Source of the DNA: Squalus acanthias
Lineage: Eukaryota
Assembly (NCBI GenBank): GCA_030390025.1
Contig: CM059431.1
Coordinates: forward strand, 96,288,001 to 96,352,000
Reading direction: 5' to 3'
Length of the DNA stretch: 64,000 nt
Shown: piece after piece, positions 55,201 through 64,000 of the stretch
Layout of the letters: every line of letters starts with the position of its first letter
Numbering within the stretch: position 1 is the first letter of the stretch
The notes under the pieces: model-generated
Databases searched by the model: none
Told to the model about the DNA's origin: nothing
The model's input: the letters and a program-made list of their open reading frames with translations, nothing else
Position numbers and translations under genes: made by a program

Positions 55201-56964
55201 AGTCCAACTAAATGCATTTCTCAGTTTCCAATCCGTTCCTTTCCCATTCAACCCAATACTCAGTTTCCAATTCGTTCCAGAATAATTCAATCCAAAACTC
55301 AGTTTCCAATCCGTTCCAGTCCAATTCAATCCAATATTCAGTGTCCAATTCGTTCCAGTCCAACTCAAACCAATACTCAGTTTCCAATCCGTTCTATTCC
55401 AATCCAACTCAATACTCAATTTCCAATCCATTCCAATCGAATTCAGCACAATACACAGTTTCCAGTTTGATCCAGTCCAATTAAATCCAATACTCAGTTT
55501 CCAAATCGTTCCAGACCAATTCCATCCAATACTAACTTTTAAATCCGTTCCATTCCAATTCAATCCAATACTCAGTTTCCAATACATTCCAGTCCAACTC
55601 AATATAGTACTCAGTTTTCAATCTGGTCCATTCCAATTTAATCCAATACTCTGATTCCAATTCATTCCAGTCCAATTCAATTTAATACTCAGTTTCCAAT
55701 TAGTTCCAGTCCAACTCAGTCCAGTACTCAGTTTCCAATCCGTTCCATTCCAATTTAATCCAATACTCAGATTCCAATTCATTCCAGTCAAATTCAATAC
55801 AATACTTAGTTTCCAATCCGTTCCAGTACAATTAAATCCAACACTCAGTTTCCAATGCGTTGCAGTCCAGCTGAATCCAATACTCAGTTTTCTATTCGGC
55901 CCTGTCCAATTCATTCCAATACTCAGTTCCCAATCCGTTCCATTCCAATTCAAACAAGTACTCAGTTTCCAAGTCGTTCCAGTCCAATTCAATCCAATAC
56001 TCAGATTCCAATTCGTTACAGTCCATTTCAATCCAATACTGACTTTCCAATCCGTTCCATTCCAATTCAAACCAAAACTAAATTTCCAATTCGTTCCAGT
56101 TCAATTCAATTCACTACTCAATTTCCAATCAGTTCCAGTCAAATTCAATCTAATACTCAGGTTCAAGTCCATTCCATTCCAAATTCATACAATACTCAGT
56201 TTCTAATTTGTCCTATTTCAATTCAATCCAATACTCAGTTTGCAATTCGCTCCAGTCCAATTCAATCCAATATTCAGTTTCCAAACCTTTCCAGTCAATT
56301 TATTCCAATATTCAGTTTCCAATGCATTCCAGTCCTGTTCGATGCTATACTCAGTTTCCATTCCGCTCCATTCCAATTCAAAACAATACTCAGTTTCCAA
56401 TCCGTTCTATTCCAATTCAAACCAATACTCAGTTTCCAATTCGTTCCAGTCCATGTCAATCCAATACGCAGTTTCCAATTAGTTCCAGTCCAACTAAATG
56501 CATTTCTCAGTTTCCAATCCGTTCCTTTCCAATTCAACCCAATACTCAGTTTCCAATTCGTCCCAGAATAATTCAATCCAAAACTCAGTTTCCAATACAT
56601 TCCAGTCCAACTCAATCCAGTACTCAGTTTCCAATCTGTTCCATTCCAATTTAATCCAATACTCAGCTTCCAATTCATTCCATTCGAATTCAATCCAATA
56701 CTCAGTTTCCAATTCATTCAAGTCCAACTCAGTCCAGTACTCAGATTTCAATCCATCCCATTCCAATTCAAGCCAATACTCAGTTTCCAATCCCTTCCAT
56801 TCCAATACTCAGTTTCCCATGCATTCCAGTCCTCTTCAATCCAATACTCAGTTTCCAATCCGTTCTATTCCAATCCAACTCAATACTCAATTTCCAATCC
56901 ATTCCAATCGAATTCAACACAATACACAGTTTCCAGTTTGATCCAGTCCAATTAAATACAATAC
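49272..56964. repeat. Satellite array, 39-bp monomer (~TACTCAGTTTCCAATCCGTTCCATTCCAATTCAATCCAA)
   Basis: Direct tandem periodicity; translations repeat every 13 aa (LSIGLNWNGTDWK). Confidence 0.97.
52828..53053 (-). mobile_element. Short chimeric retroposon insertion in the satellite (CR1 tail plus a SINE-like segment)
   Basis: CATAGAAA repeats and GGAGTAGGCCATTCGGCCC as at ~44200; CATTC duplicated at 52823-27 and 53054-58. Confidence 0.8.
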
Positions 56965-58635
56965 TGTAGAATTCGCAATATATCGCGATTTTATTAATAA
57001 GGAGAAAAACACAGAGTTTCGTTCAAACAGCTTTTATTTCAGCAGAATGCTGTCAGGTTTCAAAGTGGACACAAGCAGTTTGTAAAATGGCCGCCGCACC
57101 TCGTGGCGGAACATTCTAGACCTTTCAACAGGCAGACAAGATGGCGTTCCAATAAACATTTGTGCAAGATCGATTAAGATTCAGCACATTGAAGATAATA
57201 CACGAGACATCATGGGTTTGCAGTATACACATAGATACTGAAATCGGTCTCCCGGGTACGAATAAAGGCTATTGTATCAAGTAATCAAGGGCCCATCCAA
57301 AGACATTAATATGTAAAATCCCAACGACTCTACGATGAGAGAGCCGTTAGCGGGTAGTTACAGAAAACACTTGGAGGCCCCAAAACCCCTCCAGGGAGAA
57401 CACCGACCGATTAAACAATGGGAGAAATATTAACAGGTACTCAGACATTTACGAGTAGCCCCGAAACCCATTAAAACCGGAGATCACCTATACAAGACAT
57501 TTGAGCGCCAAACCCTAACAAAAGGAAAAGACATTAAGGTTGGGCGGGAAACGGAAGATTTTGTACTATAATTACAAGCTCCAACCGTCCATCTCTCTCT
57601 TATCTTGCTGGTGTTCATCCTCGTGGCTGCTCCTGTGTTCTTGACTCGCCGTCTTGTTCCTGTTTGCCTGGTGTCTCTTTTAAAAGACTGTTGAACTTTG
57701 TGATCCGTTCGGATCTACCTCGTGTCGTGTCACGAAGACCTGTGTTGGTAACCGGCATCGGAACCAAAGGCCCGAGAAGAGATGAGATGAGAAGAGACGA
57801 AGACCATACTTATCGCCACGGTCAGTAAGCCCCGACCGCGCCTGTAGGTCGAATAGACAATTTTCCTTGCCAGGAAGACTTCTTTGAACTTTAAAGAACG
57901 GACCCCAGAAGATTCTTCTTTGAGGTATTGACTGGTCTGTGAAACCCATCAGGGCAGATCCTCATGACGAACACCGAGAGATTATTCTCTTAAGTGTTGA
58001 CTGGTACGTGAAACCCACAAACACAGATCTTCATAACAACAGACGTTCCAGCCTGCTAGCCGGAGCAGAAGCAAGTAAACAAGTGGGGCCAGGAGACCCC
58101 CTGATCGACACGTGGGTGCTGCGGTGAAAACATCCGATCAGCTATTCGGAATTTCTCCGAGTTATCACGAGTGGTGAGCATGAGTCTCGAATCCTACGAA
58201 TCTAGCTAGGACAGATATTGATAGGGGAGGGTTTAAGTACTAAGGATAATTGTAATGTGTGCCCCCATTTACGGTGTGTCGTTCGTTCCTCGTTTCCCTA
58301 GAATTAGTTACATAACTGCGTGTAAGATTGTACTGTCATTAATCTGTGCTTATGACATGTATTTCGTAATCTTAAACATTATGCAATAAAGATTTTCCAT
58401 TTCGTACCATTCAACCGAGTCTACATGAGTTTCATCTCCATTACTGCTCTCGCATCTAAGTCCAGTGTCTAGAACCGTAAGGGCGAGTGATTCGAACCAC
58501 TCACAGGTGTGTCTAGTGTTCCCAGACTGGCTGGAGACCAGAACAGGCAACAAGGCCTAAACCCGCACTGACATACAGGCTGCACAGAGCCACACGAATC
58601 TCACAGGCTGAGAGACACGCACGCAAACCCTTACA
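56965..58635 (+). repeat. Putative 5' LTR (~1671 bp)
   Basis: Starts TGTA exactly where the satellite stops and ends TACA 5 nt before the PBS; TATA-like TATAAT ~57568; AATAAA ~58386. No second LTR in the window. Confidence 0.75.
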
Positions 58636-58639
58636 GAAA

Positions 58640-60448
58640 ATGGCGACCGCGGCAGGACACTGGCAGCGAGAGGGTAGTGTGTTAGACTTTGGTGTGACGG
58701 TACGAAATGTTATGCAGGAAAAGATAGCAGATTATGTGTTCGGAAAGGTTAATCTAACTAAGAAATGGATAAGTGAATTGTTAGCGGATAAAAGTCCACT
58801 AGAGGCAGCCGAAAGGTGGACAGATAGTAAAGAACATAAAAAGACACTCGAGAAAGCAGTCTGGCTAATGTGTTACAAAAGGCAGGTCCAGATTTCAAAC
58901 CAGGTCATTACAGCGCTAACAGCTCGAATCAGTCATTTAGAGGGAGAAATGGATGAGAAGGTCTCTGGAGGGGAATTGCTCATTAGGAATTTAAGTGCGC
59001 TGCACCAAGAACGCCAGGAAATCTCCAGTCACCATAAAACAAGGATAGATTACCTCGAGTGCCAGGTCACTGAGGCAAAGTTAAATGAGGGCAGATTAAA
59101 GGAACGATGTGCCCGCCAAGCTGCCCAGATAAGAACTCAGGAAGAGAGCTTGACGGGGATTAGGGCGGCATATAAGTTGGCCCTTGAGGATAAGTTTCAG
59201 GGGGCCGATCATAGCGCCTGCCAAAAGGAGATAGAGCACCTCAAAAAGGCCGTGAACAAAGCGCACGGCATGGTGTGCCTTATCAGTCCGTCAGCACACC
59301 AGCCGCTAGTAAAAGAGGAGTTTCAGAAGTCCCCACCAAGTAAAGCAGAGGAAGTATTAGCCACTGCGCCCTCCGCGCCACCCAGCTATTCGGAAACCTG
59401 GGTAAGGGAGGAAGTAGTGGAAGAAACGAAAGAGCCCATTGAGAAAGAAGTGGAAAAGGGACCGTTGTATCCAGTAACGGGTATAAAAAGGGGCCCAAAC
59501 AGAAACGGTGGGGAGGAACCAGGGGATCTCCTCGGCCAGCTTGTGTTGCCTCACAGCTCACACCAGCTGAGAGTTATGATAAATCACGTACGGAAGCTAA
59601 CCGAGTTAGACGACCCTTCCGTACATTTCAGAGAAGTTGAGCAAACCGCAGCCATTAACGGCTGCGATGATGGGGAAACAGCAAAAATGCTGTTGTTTTC
59701 GTTAGGCAGTTCAATCCTTCAGTGTCTCTCGGGCGAGAGCAAGAGGGGAACCAAGACTTATGAGGCATTGAAGAATGAGGTCCTGGAAGTGTTGGGGGCG
59801 GACGATGAAGGTCCGTTTGGTAGAGTGGGACAAACAGTGCAGATGGAGGGAGAACCCCCGAAAGTTTTTGCCGACAGGCTGTGGCCAGTATATCAGCGCA
59901 GCTGTCTAGGTGCGCTAGAGCGCGACGATATGGACGGCGCCGGTTTAAATCATTGGCTTAGGTGCATAGTAGCCAACAGTTTACCAGCCGTCAGAGAGCA
60001 GGCAAAGGCATGGTTTGATCCCAATGACCCCAACATTACGGAAGAGTCGGTATTGAATCGACTCACGTTAGGATATCGCAATATAAGGGGTATGGGAACA
60101 CGTCCCCTTAAGGGAAAAGTACATGAGGTACGACCCGCAGCCCCGTATCAAAGGGAGTGGCATCAGGAGGGTAATCGCGCCCCGCAGGCAAGTAATGCTT
60201 GTTACGGGTGTGGGAAGACAGGGCACTGGCGCAAGAACTGCAGGAACCCTTGGAAGGATTCCAGGGATAAAATTCCCGCAGCCCGAGCCCAGACGCCTGT
60301 CCCTGCTAGGGAAGCTAGTGCACCCACCCCTCCCGACGACCTCGAATCAGTGTTGGGAGCCATGCGCAAATTATTGAGTGCACATGGAAAGGTGGCGGTT
60401 GCCACCGGCCCCGTAGGTGCCGCAGGACCGTCTAATAGTACCCAATGA
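58640..60448 (+). CDS. gag: Gag polyprotein (602 aa from first ATG)
   Basis: Coiled-coil region, PSAPPSY, capsid-like region, CCHC knuckle CYGCGKTGHWRKNC; directly follows LTR/PBS. Confidence 0.9.
   Translation: MATAAGHWQREGSVLDFGVTVRNVMQEKIADYVFGKVNLTKKWISELLADKSPLEAAERWTDSKEHKKTLEKAVWLMCYKRQVQISNQVITALTARISHLEGEMDEKVSGGELLIRNLSALHQERQEISSHHKTRIDYLECQVTEAKLNEGRLKERCARQAAQIRTQEESLTGIRAAYKLALEDKFQGADHSACQKEIEHLKKAVNKAHGMVCLISPSAHQPLVKEEFQKSPPSKAEEVLATAPSAPPSYSETWVREEVVEETKEPIEKEVEKGPLYPVTGIKRGPNRNGGEEPGDLLGQLVLPHSSHQLRVMINHVRKLTELDDPSVHFREVEQTAAINGCDDGETAKMLLFSLGSSILQCLSGESKRGTKTYEALKNEVLEVLGADDEGPFGRVGQTVQMEGEPPKVFADRLWPVYQRSCLGALERDDMDGAGLNHWLRCIVANSLPAVREQAKAWFDPNDPNITEESVLNRLTLGYRNIRGMGTRPLKGKVHEVRPAAPYQREWHQEGNRAPQASNACYGCGKTGHWRKNCRNPWKDSRDKIPAARAQTPVPAREASAPTPPDDLESVLGAMRKLLSAHGKVAVATGPVGAAGPSNSTQ
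58641..58658 (+). other. Primer binding site, tRNA-Arg(UCG)
   Basis: TGGCGACCGCGGCAGGAC is the reverse complement of GTCCTGCCGCGGTCG+CCA, the 3' end of vertebrate tRNA-Arg-TCG as recalled. Confidence 0.85.
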
Positions 60449-63400
60449 CTAGAGCCCGCGCAGCCCGTCTACCTGTGTCCGCTCAGCTATGATGCGTGGA
60501 AGCGACCTTTGGTGGAGATGGAGGTAGAGAAACAGAAGGGTAGTTATTTGTTGGACACGGGAGCTTCTTGCACCATAATCCATACAGATAGCCCTTTTGA
60601 CTCGCCGCTATCTACCAAGGTCCCATTCACATTAGCGGGGTTCACGGGAAAAGAACAGGCTGGCGCATTCTCCCTTCCGCTATCCATTCGTTTGGGAGCA
60701 CTTCACCTCAAGTGGAAGTGCATACTGATGGAATGGCAGGAGGGGGGTGGAAGAGGTATCCTCGGGTCCGATCTCCTATCAGGGCACGGGATCCTCGTGG
60801 ACCTCAGAAATCACTGTCTCTGGGGGGCTAAGAGTGAAAAAGGCGAGGTAGTAGTGATTCCGGGGGAGGAAGAAACAGGGGTCCTGTGTACCGTGCAGCC
60901 ATCCGGAGGCTACGACCTCGGGCTTATGGTCGCAGGTGTCCCAACGGACATGCAAACGTACGTGTCAGATAATATGCACGCGTTTGCAACCCACAAGCAC
61001 GATTGTGGGAGGGTTACCGGGTTTGAGGTCAGCGTAGATGGGGACCCCATGACCCGGCCCCAAAAACAGTATAACTTCCCCAAAGAAGCAGAACCCGATA
61101 TGGAGACAGCAATGTCCTCCTTGGTGCAGCAGGGCGTGTTGAGGCCGATAGCCACACACGTGAACTCCCCATTATGGCCGGTTAGGAAGCCGGATAATTC
61201 GTGGAGAGCCACGGTGGACTACAGAGTCCTTAACAGTAACATTCCCGCCTGCGCGCCCACGGTAGCAGCAGTTGCTGACCTAATAGGGAGTATCCCAGCG
61301 TCCGCGACCACGTTCACGGTGTTGGATATCTCGAACGGTTTTTGGTCCATCCCGCTGAGGCGAGAGGACCAGTACAAGTTTGCCTTTACTTTCAAAGGAC
61401 AACAGTACACATGGAACTGTCTGCCACAGGGTTTCCACAATAGCCCCAGTATTTTCCATCAGTGTATGGCAGGAAGTTTAAAGGAGTTTAGTCAGCCCAA
61501 TCAGATAGTGCAGTACGTGGATGATTTGCTCCTATTTACGGACTCAAGGGAGGAGCATGGACCACTGCTGGACGAGTTATTGGAGCTGCTAGCGAGAAAG
61601 GGTTTTAAAATAAATCCTAAGAAAGCACGTATCGGTCAGCAGGAAGTAAAATTCCTGGGACTGACCATTCGCGCTGGGGAAAGAGCCATAGACAAAGCTA
61701 GGAGGGAGTCGGTGCAAGAGTTACCGATTCCCAACAACATAAGGGGTGTGAGGTCCTTCTTGGGACTGACCGGTTACTGCAGGGATTTTATCGAAGACTA
61801 TGCGGCCACAGCGGCGCCGCTCCTCCGACTCCTCCATAAGGGAGTGGAGTGGTCTTGGGACGAGGGCTGCCAAGCAGCCTTCGAGAAGTTAAAAAGGGAT
61901 CTGCAGACCGCGCCAGCTTTAGGGGCCATAGATGGGGGGAAGGAGTTTTTCCTGGAGGTAGCTGCCAGCGGGGACAGCTTGAGCGCTGTGCTGCTCCAAG
62001 AGCGTCACGGCAAGCTGAGGCCGGTTGTCTATTCGTCCAGAGTGTTAACGGATGTGGAGAGAAGTTTCTCCAATTGCGAAAGGCACCTTTTAGCCACGCA
62101 TTGGGCTGTGAAAAGATCAGCGATCTTCACAGGGCTCTCTCCCATCACTCTCCTCACCCATCACACACCAACTAAGATGCTTCTAGATGGGAGGATTAAA
62201 GATGGGACCGTAAGCAGCGTGCGTATTGCGCGCTGGACCCTTCTTCTTTCCCAGATGGATCTTAAAGTAAAAGGTCTTTGCGAGCCCAGGCTTGCGGCCA
62301 ATTTGGTATACCCCGGTACAGCCCACCGATGTTCGGTGGAAGGGGTGTGGGACGTCAACATAGGTTTGCGGGCCGGGATACATCCCAATGGGCGCGAGAT
62401 TTATGTTGATGGGTCTAGCACAGTATCTGCTGGCGAACGACTCACAGGGTGTGGAGTTTATGACCCTGCGGCAAACCTTGCCCTGGCGATCAAGCTCCCT
62501 AGCACCATGAGCGCGCAGCAGGCTGAGCTGTCTGCCGTGGTGTACGTTGTTACCCACCCAGACATTTTCCCAACCCCATACACGATTTGCTCGGACAGTA
62601 TGTTCACCTGCAATTCGTGTACGGAATACCTGGCCATTTGGTCCCGCCGTGGATACACCTCCGCGGACGGGCGACCTTTAACGGTGAAGCCCTTGCTGGA
62701 AAAGATCTTAGCAGCAGCAGCAGGGGAGGAAGGGGAGATTTTCATCCATAAGGTGAAAGCTCACTCCTCCACAGAGCCCCGTGGGGAGGGCAACCAGCAG
62801 GCGGATGCGCTAGCCAGGGAAGGTGCCCGCAACGGCATTTTCTGGGACCCCTATGGGACCAGACCCATGGCAGCGATCCAAGGCAGGGACGGGAATCCCG
62901 GGAACACCAGGGTAGCATTGCCCCTAGACCTTAAGACCGTCCAAACCCAGGATCCCGCCCTAAAAGCAGTCCTAAAAACCATTGTTGAGGGGAAGCAGGT
63001 AGAAGGTCCGTACAGTACGGCAACCCTCTCAGTTAAGGAAGGCATGCTGTTCCGCGAGGAGCAGTGGGTTGTGCCGCAGCAGCACACGAGGGAATTCCTC
63101 CAGTTGGCTCACGAGGGACCAGGGGCAGGGCACCCCGGGCCCGAGGTTACCTGGCAACGGGTAGAGCAAGCGGGATGGTGGCCAGGGCTCAGGGAACAAG
63201 TCCGCGAGTTCTGTGCAAACTGTCTTGTGTGCGCTGCAAACAACCCAGACCCCCAGAAAAGGAAAGTGCCCATGGGACACGTAAGAAGGGTAGAGGGACC
63301 ATGGCAGTCGATACAGATCGACTATATAGGGCCCCTGCCTACCACCCAGGGAGGCTATAAATACTGCCTCGTCTTGGTGGATGTGTTTTCCAAGTGGGTG

Positions 63401-64000
63401 GAAGCCTTCCCCTGTCGAACAGCTTCGGCACTGGGTACTGCAAAAATCTTGGTCCGGGAAGTGTTCTCGCGGTGGGGACTCCCCCGTTTTGTGGAGTCAG
63501 ACCAAGGGAGTCATTTCACCGGCCAGGTGATGCAGAACACCCTCATGCTTTTGGGCATTGAAGGGAAGCGGCACGTAGCACACAATCCCCAGTCATCCGG
63601 GATTGTTGAACGCATGAACCGGACCCTGAAGGAGAAATTGAGGAAAGAGACTAGGAACTCGCCCCAAAAATGGGCGGAAGTTCTGCCTTTAGTCCTCATG
63701 GGGGTCCGGGCCAGTCAGTCAAAAAGTACGGGGTACTCCCCGCACGAGGTGATGACTGGGAGGCTCATGCGAACCCCCACCCATGTGCTAGCGCCGGTGC
63801 TCACTGAGGGTCAGCTCCAAGAGATAAGCAGGGACAAGTTCGCCCAGACCCTCTTGGAGCGCCTGAAGCAGGTTTATGAGCAGGCGGCTGGGAACATGGG
63901 AAGGCAGCATCAGGGCAATCGCCTGTTGCTGGAACCCCGCAAAACGCGGGAGTGGGAAGTAGGAGACCAGGTTATGGTCAGAAACTACGCCAGAGTAGGG
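60449..64000 (+). CDS. pol: Pol polyprotein (PR-RT-tether-RNase H-IN), same frame as gag, 3' incomplete
   Basis: Manual translation finds no stop in 1184 codons: LLDTGAS, GILGSD, NSPLWPVRK, LPQGFHNSP, YVDD, IYVDGS..AQQAEL..SDS..KVKAH..GNQQAD, HHCC, QIDYIG..SDQG..IVERMN. Confidence 0.95.

Follow-up and report, generated by a model that had tools for sequence, protein, structure and literature searches.

In an endogenous retrovirus (ERV) of Squalus acanthias, gag and pro-pol lie in one reading frame with exactly one stop codon between them, an in-frame UGA. Programmed readthrough of this UGA, producing Gag-Pro-Pol, is the best explanation of the arrangement and, in our judgment, a probable one. 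We regard readthrough as most likely because of the layout of the two genes, the inheritance of the stop codon across lineages of the element, the coding-type evolution of the codons that follow it, and a nucleotide context already known to be leaky. The element is a young, very abundant ERV; the vertebrate genome that carries it is 3.7 Gb in size and holds >1000 copies. The copy described here starts within a stretch of 64,000 nucleotides, which we refer to as “the window” (GenBank assembly GCA_030390025.1, contig CM059431.1, positions 96,288,001 to 96,352,000 of the forward strand). Positions are those of the window, the features located within it are on its + strand, and “window-equivalent” positions continue the same numbering past its end. 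The junction belongs to a class that is already known, i.e., retroviruses with an in-frame UGA at gag-pol; what is new is that a retrovirus has a UGA-CUA(G) context of the alphavirus/mammalian type, and that variants of this context form a natural series. Comparative support for this UGA junction is unusually rich.

The stop codon between gag and pro-pol

A stop-to-stop scan for open reading frames (ORFs) under the standard genetic code places the gag frame at 58517..60448; an ORF in the same frame begins at 60449 and is still open at the end of the window. The gag ORF itself occupies 58640..60445, with its first in-frame ATG at 58640 and a second at 58712, and encodes a CCHC zinc knuckle near the C-terminus (residues 561-576 of the stop-to-stop frame) that is weak in Pfam (E 0.0038, under the cut-off). 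The stop codon follows directly, as TGA at 60446..60448, and the letters around it read AGT ACC CAA TGA CTA GAG CCC GCG, with CTAG at 60449-60452. The pro-pol ORF fills 60449..64000 and, in the genomic continuation, ends at window-equivalent 64987 (1512 codons). It encodes protease, reverse transcriptase (RT), tether, RNase H, and integrase, and the Pfam matches 3' of the stop are RVP, RVT_1, RT_RNaseH_2, RNase_H, Integrase_H2C2, and rve, the RVP match (E 4.8e-4) being at Pfam's cut-off. The protease motif LLDTGAS is found at 60548-60568, with the active-site codons for Asp-Thr-Gly at 60554..60562; the catalytic Asp is codon +36 counted from the stop. The Pfam and ORF positions therefore put the stop after the zinc knuckle of the nucleocapsid and before the DTG of the protease. 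An earlier reading of the window, made from its letters alone (the sequence-only reading), had described gag as ending in CAA TGA CTA G and the same frame as continuing without a stop through LLDTGAS to the window end, and was correct on both points.

The TGA is not a private mutation of the window copy. A DNA search with the junction returned 2867 first-look candidates, and all 40 of the places scored are 98-100% identical; TGACTAG is kept in every one of the 30 nearest genomic copies, the window's own stretch being one of the 30. The assembly was also searched with a pattern that has NNN at the stop position between fixed flanks, matched either exactly or with ≤2 mismatches. Exact flanks enclose some triplet at 176 places, and the triplet is TGA at 173 of these, with TGC and TAA as the exceptions seen. 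Allowing ≤2 flank mismatches gives 1300 places; among the 100 matches listed, 99 have TGA and one has TAA. From copies so nearly identical, nothing more is proved than the presence of TGA in the source element that amplified. Some of the copies are arranged head to tail on single contigs: C429 (58390, 69465), C2868 (232104, 243194; 184311, 202386), and C3716 (67729, 80156, 92600). Their spacing, ~11.08-11.09 kb or ~12.43-12.44 kb, is close to one element length, so that tandem proviral arrays, and not separate insertions, account for part of the copy number.

Divergent sister lineages of the element (C1, C2, B1, B2, B3, and D) were found in the same genome using P0001, P0122, and P0130 as queries; their Gag proteins are 44-63% identical to the query homologues. 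Among 36 sister-lineage loci examined, the junction was located in 33, two others being without a protease motif and one (L066) having the junction deleted. The located junctions carry TGA in 32 cases, GGA in one, and TAG or TAA in none, all at the same position. The sequence-only reading had allowed for a private nonsense mutation, with a sense codon in sibling copies; what the exact-flank copies and the divergent junctions carry, almost without exception, is TGA. In every lineage examined, gag and pol share a frame. Matches to a 1145-amino-acid Pol are free of internal stops in 35 of the 40 scored, and several sister lineages have open pol frames.

Homologues from other sources point the same way. 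Two Gag homologues, P0121 (53% identical, annotated in skate, and the nearest named one) and P0122 (44% identical), cover 99% of Gag. Both end at the same alignment column as the window Gag, with the last Gln invariant, and both are known here as proteins only. The Pol of P0001 is 84% identical to that of the window copy; P0001 appears to be from another source because matches in this genome reach only 83-85% identity. Fused Gag-Pol relatives were searched with the junction codon read as X. P0249, considered as a junction-spanning homologue, was rejected, as its alignment begins only at the residue after the stop.

Sequence context and downstream signals

The context of the stop, A-UGA-CUAG at 60445..60452, is conserved in part. 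In an alignment of 29 junctions, A at −1, the U-G-A itself, and C at +4 are invariant (29/29), and 28 of the 29 have U at +5. Although the last sense codon varies (CAA, CTA, TTA, or GCA), it always ends in the A at −1. The 32 divergent TGA junctions have, at +4 to +7, CUAG (15 junctions), CUGG (10), CUAA (4), CUGA (1), CUCG (1), or CGAG (1). Readthrough signals of type II consist of UGA-CUA or UGA-CGG. The type II hexanucleotide UGACUA is thus found in the window and in 19 of these 32 junctions, the rest having CUG (11), CUC (1), or CGA (1). What is conserved is therefore a core of A-UGA-CU rather than CUAG, +6 and +7 differing from lineage to lineage. The sequence-only reading had singled out UGA-CUAG as the context and proposed its conservation as a check; conservation holds for TGACTAG among the near copies and does not extend, as the full CUAG, to more than 15 of the 32 sister TGA junctions.

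That UGA-CUAG is a leaky context, as the same reading had maintained, is backed by published reporter figures (here and below, statements about published work refer to excerpts of the papers cited). In HEK-293T cells, UGA-CUA alone gives 1.5% readthrough and UGA-CUAG genes give 3.5-31%; changing UGA to UAA cuts readthrough 6-fold and changing it to UAG cuts it 3-fold, and C at +4 is the most important position (PMC4132726). The heptanucleotide in the window's family is identical to that of the vertebrate readthrough genes OPRL1, OPRK1, AQP4, MAPK10, and MDH1. As here, the last sense codon ends in A in three of the four UGA-CUAG genes compared (PMC4132726). Unlike the vertebrate genes, in which CUAG is conserved across vertebrates, the retroviral clade varies at +6 and +7 (e.g., CUGG, CUAA).

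The first ten codons after the stop read LEPAQPVYLC in nearly all lineages, with third positions varying. The sixth codon, for example, is CCC, CCA, CCT, or CCG, all of which encode Pro, and GCG/GCA, GTC/GTT, and TAC/TAT alternations also occur. Judged by these substitutions, the codons directly after the stop evolve as coding sequence. The Gag residues just 5' of the stop are, in contrast, poorly conserved. No in-frame Met occurs after the stop until codon 24 (Met24), 12 codons ahead of the catalytic Asp; this Met is not kept in all lineages, being K or I in some copies. A retropepsin of the usual kind has a longer N-terminus ahead of the catalytic Asp than 12 codons could encode. The coding-type evolution after the stop, taken with the position and replacement of Met24, therefore fits translation through the stop and not a separate Pol start.

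RNAalifold predicts a candidate extended stem-loop at 60464..60540, composed of helix 1 (60464-60466/60538-60540) and helix 2 (60468-60478/60518-60528). It begins 16 nt past the stop, i.e., its 5' edge is at +19 if the U of UGA is +1, and all lineages are able to form it. For 19 junctions, the consensus energy is −22.2 kcal/mol and 98.6% of cells pair, with changes on both sides in 4 pairs; a second hairpin is predicted across the DTGA codons. In the alignment of 29 sequences, 27 of them distinct, helices 1 and 2 are paired in 97.4% of cells, and one pair runs through U-A, U-G, and C-G. As a control for the fold, 160-column segments were slid along 1.4 kb of aligned pol, giving 71 segments. 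The first six, at −17 to −22 kcal/mol, have the best consensus energies of the 71, and no other goes beyond −11.4 kcal/mol. We treat the stem-loop as a candidate only, with modest statistical support. A short hairpin (CGCGCA at 60457-60462 with TGCGTG at 60493-60498) was rejected by eye because it is disrupted in lineages C1 and B2 with no compensating change.

Readthrough, related systems, and rival explanations

If the UGA is read through, most ribosomes would terminate there, yielding Gag, and a few per cent would decode it with a near-cognate tRNA and go on to Gag-Pro-Pol. The leak at the UGA would in this way set the ratio of Gag to Gag-Pol, as it does in gamma- and epsilonretroviruses. 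Leakiness would come mainly from the local A-UGA-CU(A/G), a signal of type II, as in alphaviruses and vertebrate UGA-CUAG genes, and the stem-loop 16 nt past the stop may assist. Readthrough itself, its efficiency, the residue inserted at the UGA, and any role of the stem-loop are what we infer from this comparison of sequences. Trp, Arg, and Cys are the residues to be expected where a UGA is decoded.

Retroviruses with a UGA at this place have been described before. SSSV (UGAAGA), ZFERV (UGACGA), and an ERV of Rhinella marina (UGAAGU) have an in-frame UGA at gag-pol; of the three, one is an unclassified retrovirus and the other two, both ERVs, are distant relatives of the epsilonretroviruses (PMC13517186). 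XtERV-S of Xenopus likewise has TGA between in-frame gag and pol (PMC8278194). Given these four cases, the sequence-only reading overstated the matter in calling UGA readthrough unusual for a vertebrate retrovirus-like element. The S. acanthias element resembles all four in having one frame with a single UGA between gag and pro-pol, from which layout readthrough is deduced, and differs from SSSV, ZFERV, and the R. marina ERV in its type II context, A-UGA-CUA-G. The retroviral UGA junctions of fish and amphibians have so far been deduced from single genomes, whereas here inheritance of the UGA, and of a minimal core of A-UGA-CU, is documented over several lineages and >1000 copies. Experimental verification of retroviral readthrough is restricted to gammaretroviruses in the excerpts of a 2026 review (PMC13517186).

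The element is like gammaretroviruses of the MoMLV type in that an in-frame stop lies between nucleocapsid and protease, a few tens of codons before DTG. In MoMLV, the signal consists of UAG-GGA (type III), a purine-rich spacer of 8 nt, and an H-type pseudoknot of 50 nt (PMC13517186). In the present element, by contrast, the stop is UGA-CUA, the junction has no Rfam match, and a candidate stem-loop lies at 16 nt; the gammaretroviral signal of a type III UAG and a pseudoknot is not the one found at this junction. The Sindbis-type alphavirus nsP3/nsP4 junction has the same UGACUA, and an extended stem-loop begins at +16 in Sindbis virus (PMC13517186), compared with the predicted +19 here. That junction, however, belongs to the replicase of an RNA virus rather than to a retroviral Gag-Pol, and the stem-loop of the present junction is only predicted. 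Excerpts of the same review ascribe the UGACUA type II signal to alphaviruses and a triatovirus, and to no retrovirus (PMC13517186). Among the titles and beginnings of abstracts listed in a search of openly available literature, we found no retrovirus with UGA-CUA(G).

Several observations weigh against readthrough or against one of the signals proposed for it. First, the supposed context is imperfectly kept: the full CUAG is not conserved, occurring in 15 of the 32 divergent-lineage TGA junctions. Second, exceptions to the stop exist. The one copy with GGA (L064) is decayed, its protease motif being partly deleted, and has an open frame reported as 1004 codons long; P0005, a protein from coelacanth annotated as a single Gag-Pol fusion, spans the junction with Gly at the stop position. 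Third, codons for the same residue differ between families A and B2 in only 49% of cases, i.e., the lineages are not very deep; because they are shallow, the retention of TGA over TAA, and of C over U at +4, is weak statistical evidence of selection. Fourth, synonymous variation in the first 20 codons after the stop (4/15, compared with 0.49 overall) shows a mild dip only; reduced synonymous variation near the stop was rejected as a signal, equal dips being found elsewhere in pol. Lastly, several results speak against the fold. The four compensated pairs near the junction are unexceptional, with control segments having up to 14, and in the 29-sequence alignment the number of pairs with a change on both sides is equalled by 461 of 500 shuffles. 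Folding of the downstream sequence had been suggested as a check alongside the sequence-only reading; for the window copy alone, the result is unremarkable (z = −1.0, with 32 of 200 shuffles folding as well). In Rfam, 501 nt around the junction (60300-60800) match no family with E <0.8, and no retroviral readthrough model was matched. The second hairpin, helix 3 (60552-60564/60570-60582), was rejected: it has two compensated pairs, but as read by eye from the alignment rows the window's family breaks two pairs and lineage D breaks three.

The first rival explanation is that Pol is made apart from Gag, as in foamy viruses, either from a spliced subgenomic mRNA or from Met24, where ribosomes would initiate internally or re-initiate, with the UGA as an ordinary terminator. 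The RT gives this some encouragement. The nearest solved RTs are chains titled “Reverse transcriptase/ribonuclease H p80” (4hkq, 5dmq, and 4mh8; E 6e-69 to 4e-68), followed by the PR-RT chains 7ksf and 7o24 (1e-64 to 1e-59), and then by Ty3 (8e-42) and HIV (~1e-15). The entry titles name no virus; we take the p80 chains to be gammaretroviral RTs, an assumption from which the gammaretroviral likeness of the RT follows, and the PR-RT chains to be foamy-virus entries. On these assumptions, the RT is about as near to foamy viruses (1e-64) as to gammaretroviruses (6e-69). A splice-donor-like GGTACG, read by eye, is also present in the leader at ~58698. Nevertheless, a separately made Pol accounts poorly for the 23 codons between the stop and Met24, which show coding-type evolution and rank with the best-conserved codons of the region, and Met24 itself is both too close to the catalytic Asp and unconserved in some lineages. 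Moreover, a separate Pol would not require gag and pol to share a frame, yet the frame is common to every lineage examined. We consider this explanation unlikely. Contigs from four sequencing runs (X1, X2, X9, and X12, whose RNA status is a guess) were compared with 7.9 kb of the element: among the joints listed, none has GT..AG ends or leads into pol, and among the differences listed, none falls at the stop, results that have no bearing on splicing or expression.

The second rival is that the stop is a tolerated defect, carried by non-autonomous or dead copies that spread by means of Pol supplied in trans or by segmental duplication. In favor of this, the B1/B3 lineages (L045-L049, L057-L067) are numerous and yet decayed: they have an 18-nt deletion in the N-terminal region of the protease while keeping the TGA, and four B1 copies checked (L045, L047-L049) have 6-11 stops per 449 codons. 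The tandem arrays spaced 11.1-12.4 kb (in C429, C2868, and C3716) likewise represent copy gain without retrotransposition. Against a tolerated defect, however, the same stop codon position is found in lineages with pol open over 1100-1500 codons (the 35 stop-free matches among the 40 scored), and the end of Gag is common to the homologues from other sources, P0121 and P0122. Furthermore, a random nonsense mutation would not be found in every lineage at the canonical boundary of gag and pro, and the gag, pol, and env-like frames of the window copy are all open. We judge a tolerated defect to be quite improbable. A third proposal, that the UGA is recoded as selenocysteine, has in its favor the identity of the codon and nothing further, and is highly improbable given that the stop occupies the standard gag/pro readthrough site and that 18 kb spanning the element and its flanks match no Rfam family at the gathering score, hence no SECIS family.

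With readthrough as the preferred explanation, a fuller picture can be drawn, in which a recently active ERV clade sets Gag to Gag-Pol by A-UGA-CU(A/G) together with a stem-loop 16 nt downstream, and has an env that is perhaps F-type, as in lokiretroviruses. We put this combination forward tentatively. If it is true, no retroviral lineage before this one would have been shown to use a type II/CUAG readthrough signal, and the thousands of copies, together with the sister lineages (CUAG, CUGG, CUAA), would provide a mutational series, made by nature, for the tuning of readthrough by stop context in vertebrate cells. In one family, the UGA stands in UGA-CUAG, the vertebrate context with the highest known efficiency. 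The junction, at ~150 nt, is of a size suited to reporters, and offers a case in which local context can be set against a pseudoknot and the CUAG, CUGG, and CUAA differences can be compared. The general picture of retroviral Pol expression is unchanged by the finding.

The element carrying the junction

The long terminal repeats (LTRs) were delimited by a BLAST self-comparison of 18 kb of genomic sequence surrounding the junction. The 5' LTR lies at 56966..58635 (start approximate), and the 3' LTR that matches it lies outside the window, at window-equivalent 68097-69476. The LTR ends are well matched, with 96.5% identity over 488 nt for 58150-58635 and 68990-69476, and 89% for 56963-57161 and 68097-68293. 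The two LTRs are nonetheless unequal: the central 700-990 nt are just 75-80% alike, and the 5' LTR is ~290 nt longer. This inequality suggests recombination or conversion between LTR variants, and the copy is therefore not datable by LTR divergence.

A sequence resembling a primer-binding site (PBS), beginning TGG, is read at 58641..58658, 5 nt past the end of the 5' LTR. The first in-frame ATG of gag overlaps it (A-TGGCGACC..., window 58640-58660). The skate homologue P0121 begins at the equivalent Met, with MATTKGHWQ compared with MATAAGHWQ in the window Gag. For this reason, and on the alignment of the two proteins, Gag may start inside the PBS region instead of at the ATG at 58712. The N-terminal half of Gag (~58900-59300) contains a long heptad-like stretch rich in Glu, Lys, and Gln, which has no Pfam match, and an 18-residue insertion of P0122 falls within it. 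An SMC-like gene has been reported in some lokiretroviruses (PMC7947760).

The nearest named homologues of Pol, at ~40% identity, are annotated as “NYNRIN-like” and come from frogs and coelacanth. Downstream of pol is an env-like ORF of ~845 codons (L031:9112-10000 plus L032:1-1649, window-equivalent 65112-67649), encoding a furin-like site (RQRR), stretches that resemble heptad repeats, and a hydrophobic segment at the C-terminal end. It has no match by Pfam or by sequence search of the PDB, and for the paramyxovirus fusion glycoprotein family PF00523 in particular there is no Pfam match even at E up to 10. In a language-model atlas, the C-terminal 548 amino acids are nearest to the Baculo_F, Gypsy-env, and Fusion_gly clusters (0.94-0.96), with a recognition value of 1809, below the reliability mark of 2300. 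An F-like Env has been described for lokiretroviruses (PMC7947760). The element shares with lokiretroviruses the order LTR-gag-pol-env and the presence of a tether and RNase H in Pol, a likeness that does not discriminate, as ordinary retroviruses have it too. The main text of two lokiretrovirus papers (PMC7947760, PMC9040795), supplements aside, mentions neither a stop codon nor frameshifting nor readthrough.

The provirus lies within an array of satellite repeats whose period is ~39 bp (window ~55600-56965; window-equivalent 69475-74000). The flank at 56001-56965 is 98.7% identical to 69988-70950, 13 kb off on the other side, whereas neighboring repeat units are ~78% identical. In four public runs from four coded organisms, the summed contig depth over part of the LTR (L031:2100-2627) is ~1.5-50 times that of the internal region. 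Contig depth is a poor measure, but an excess of this kind would fit many solo LTRs.

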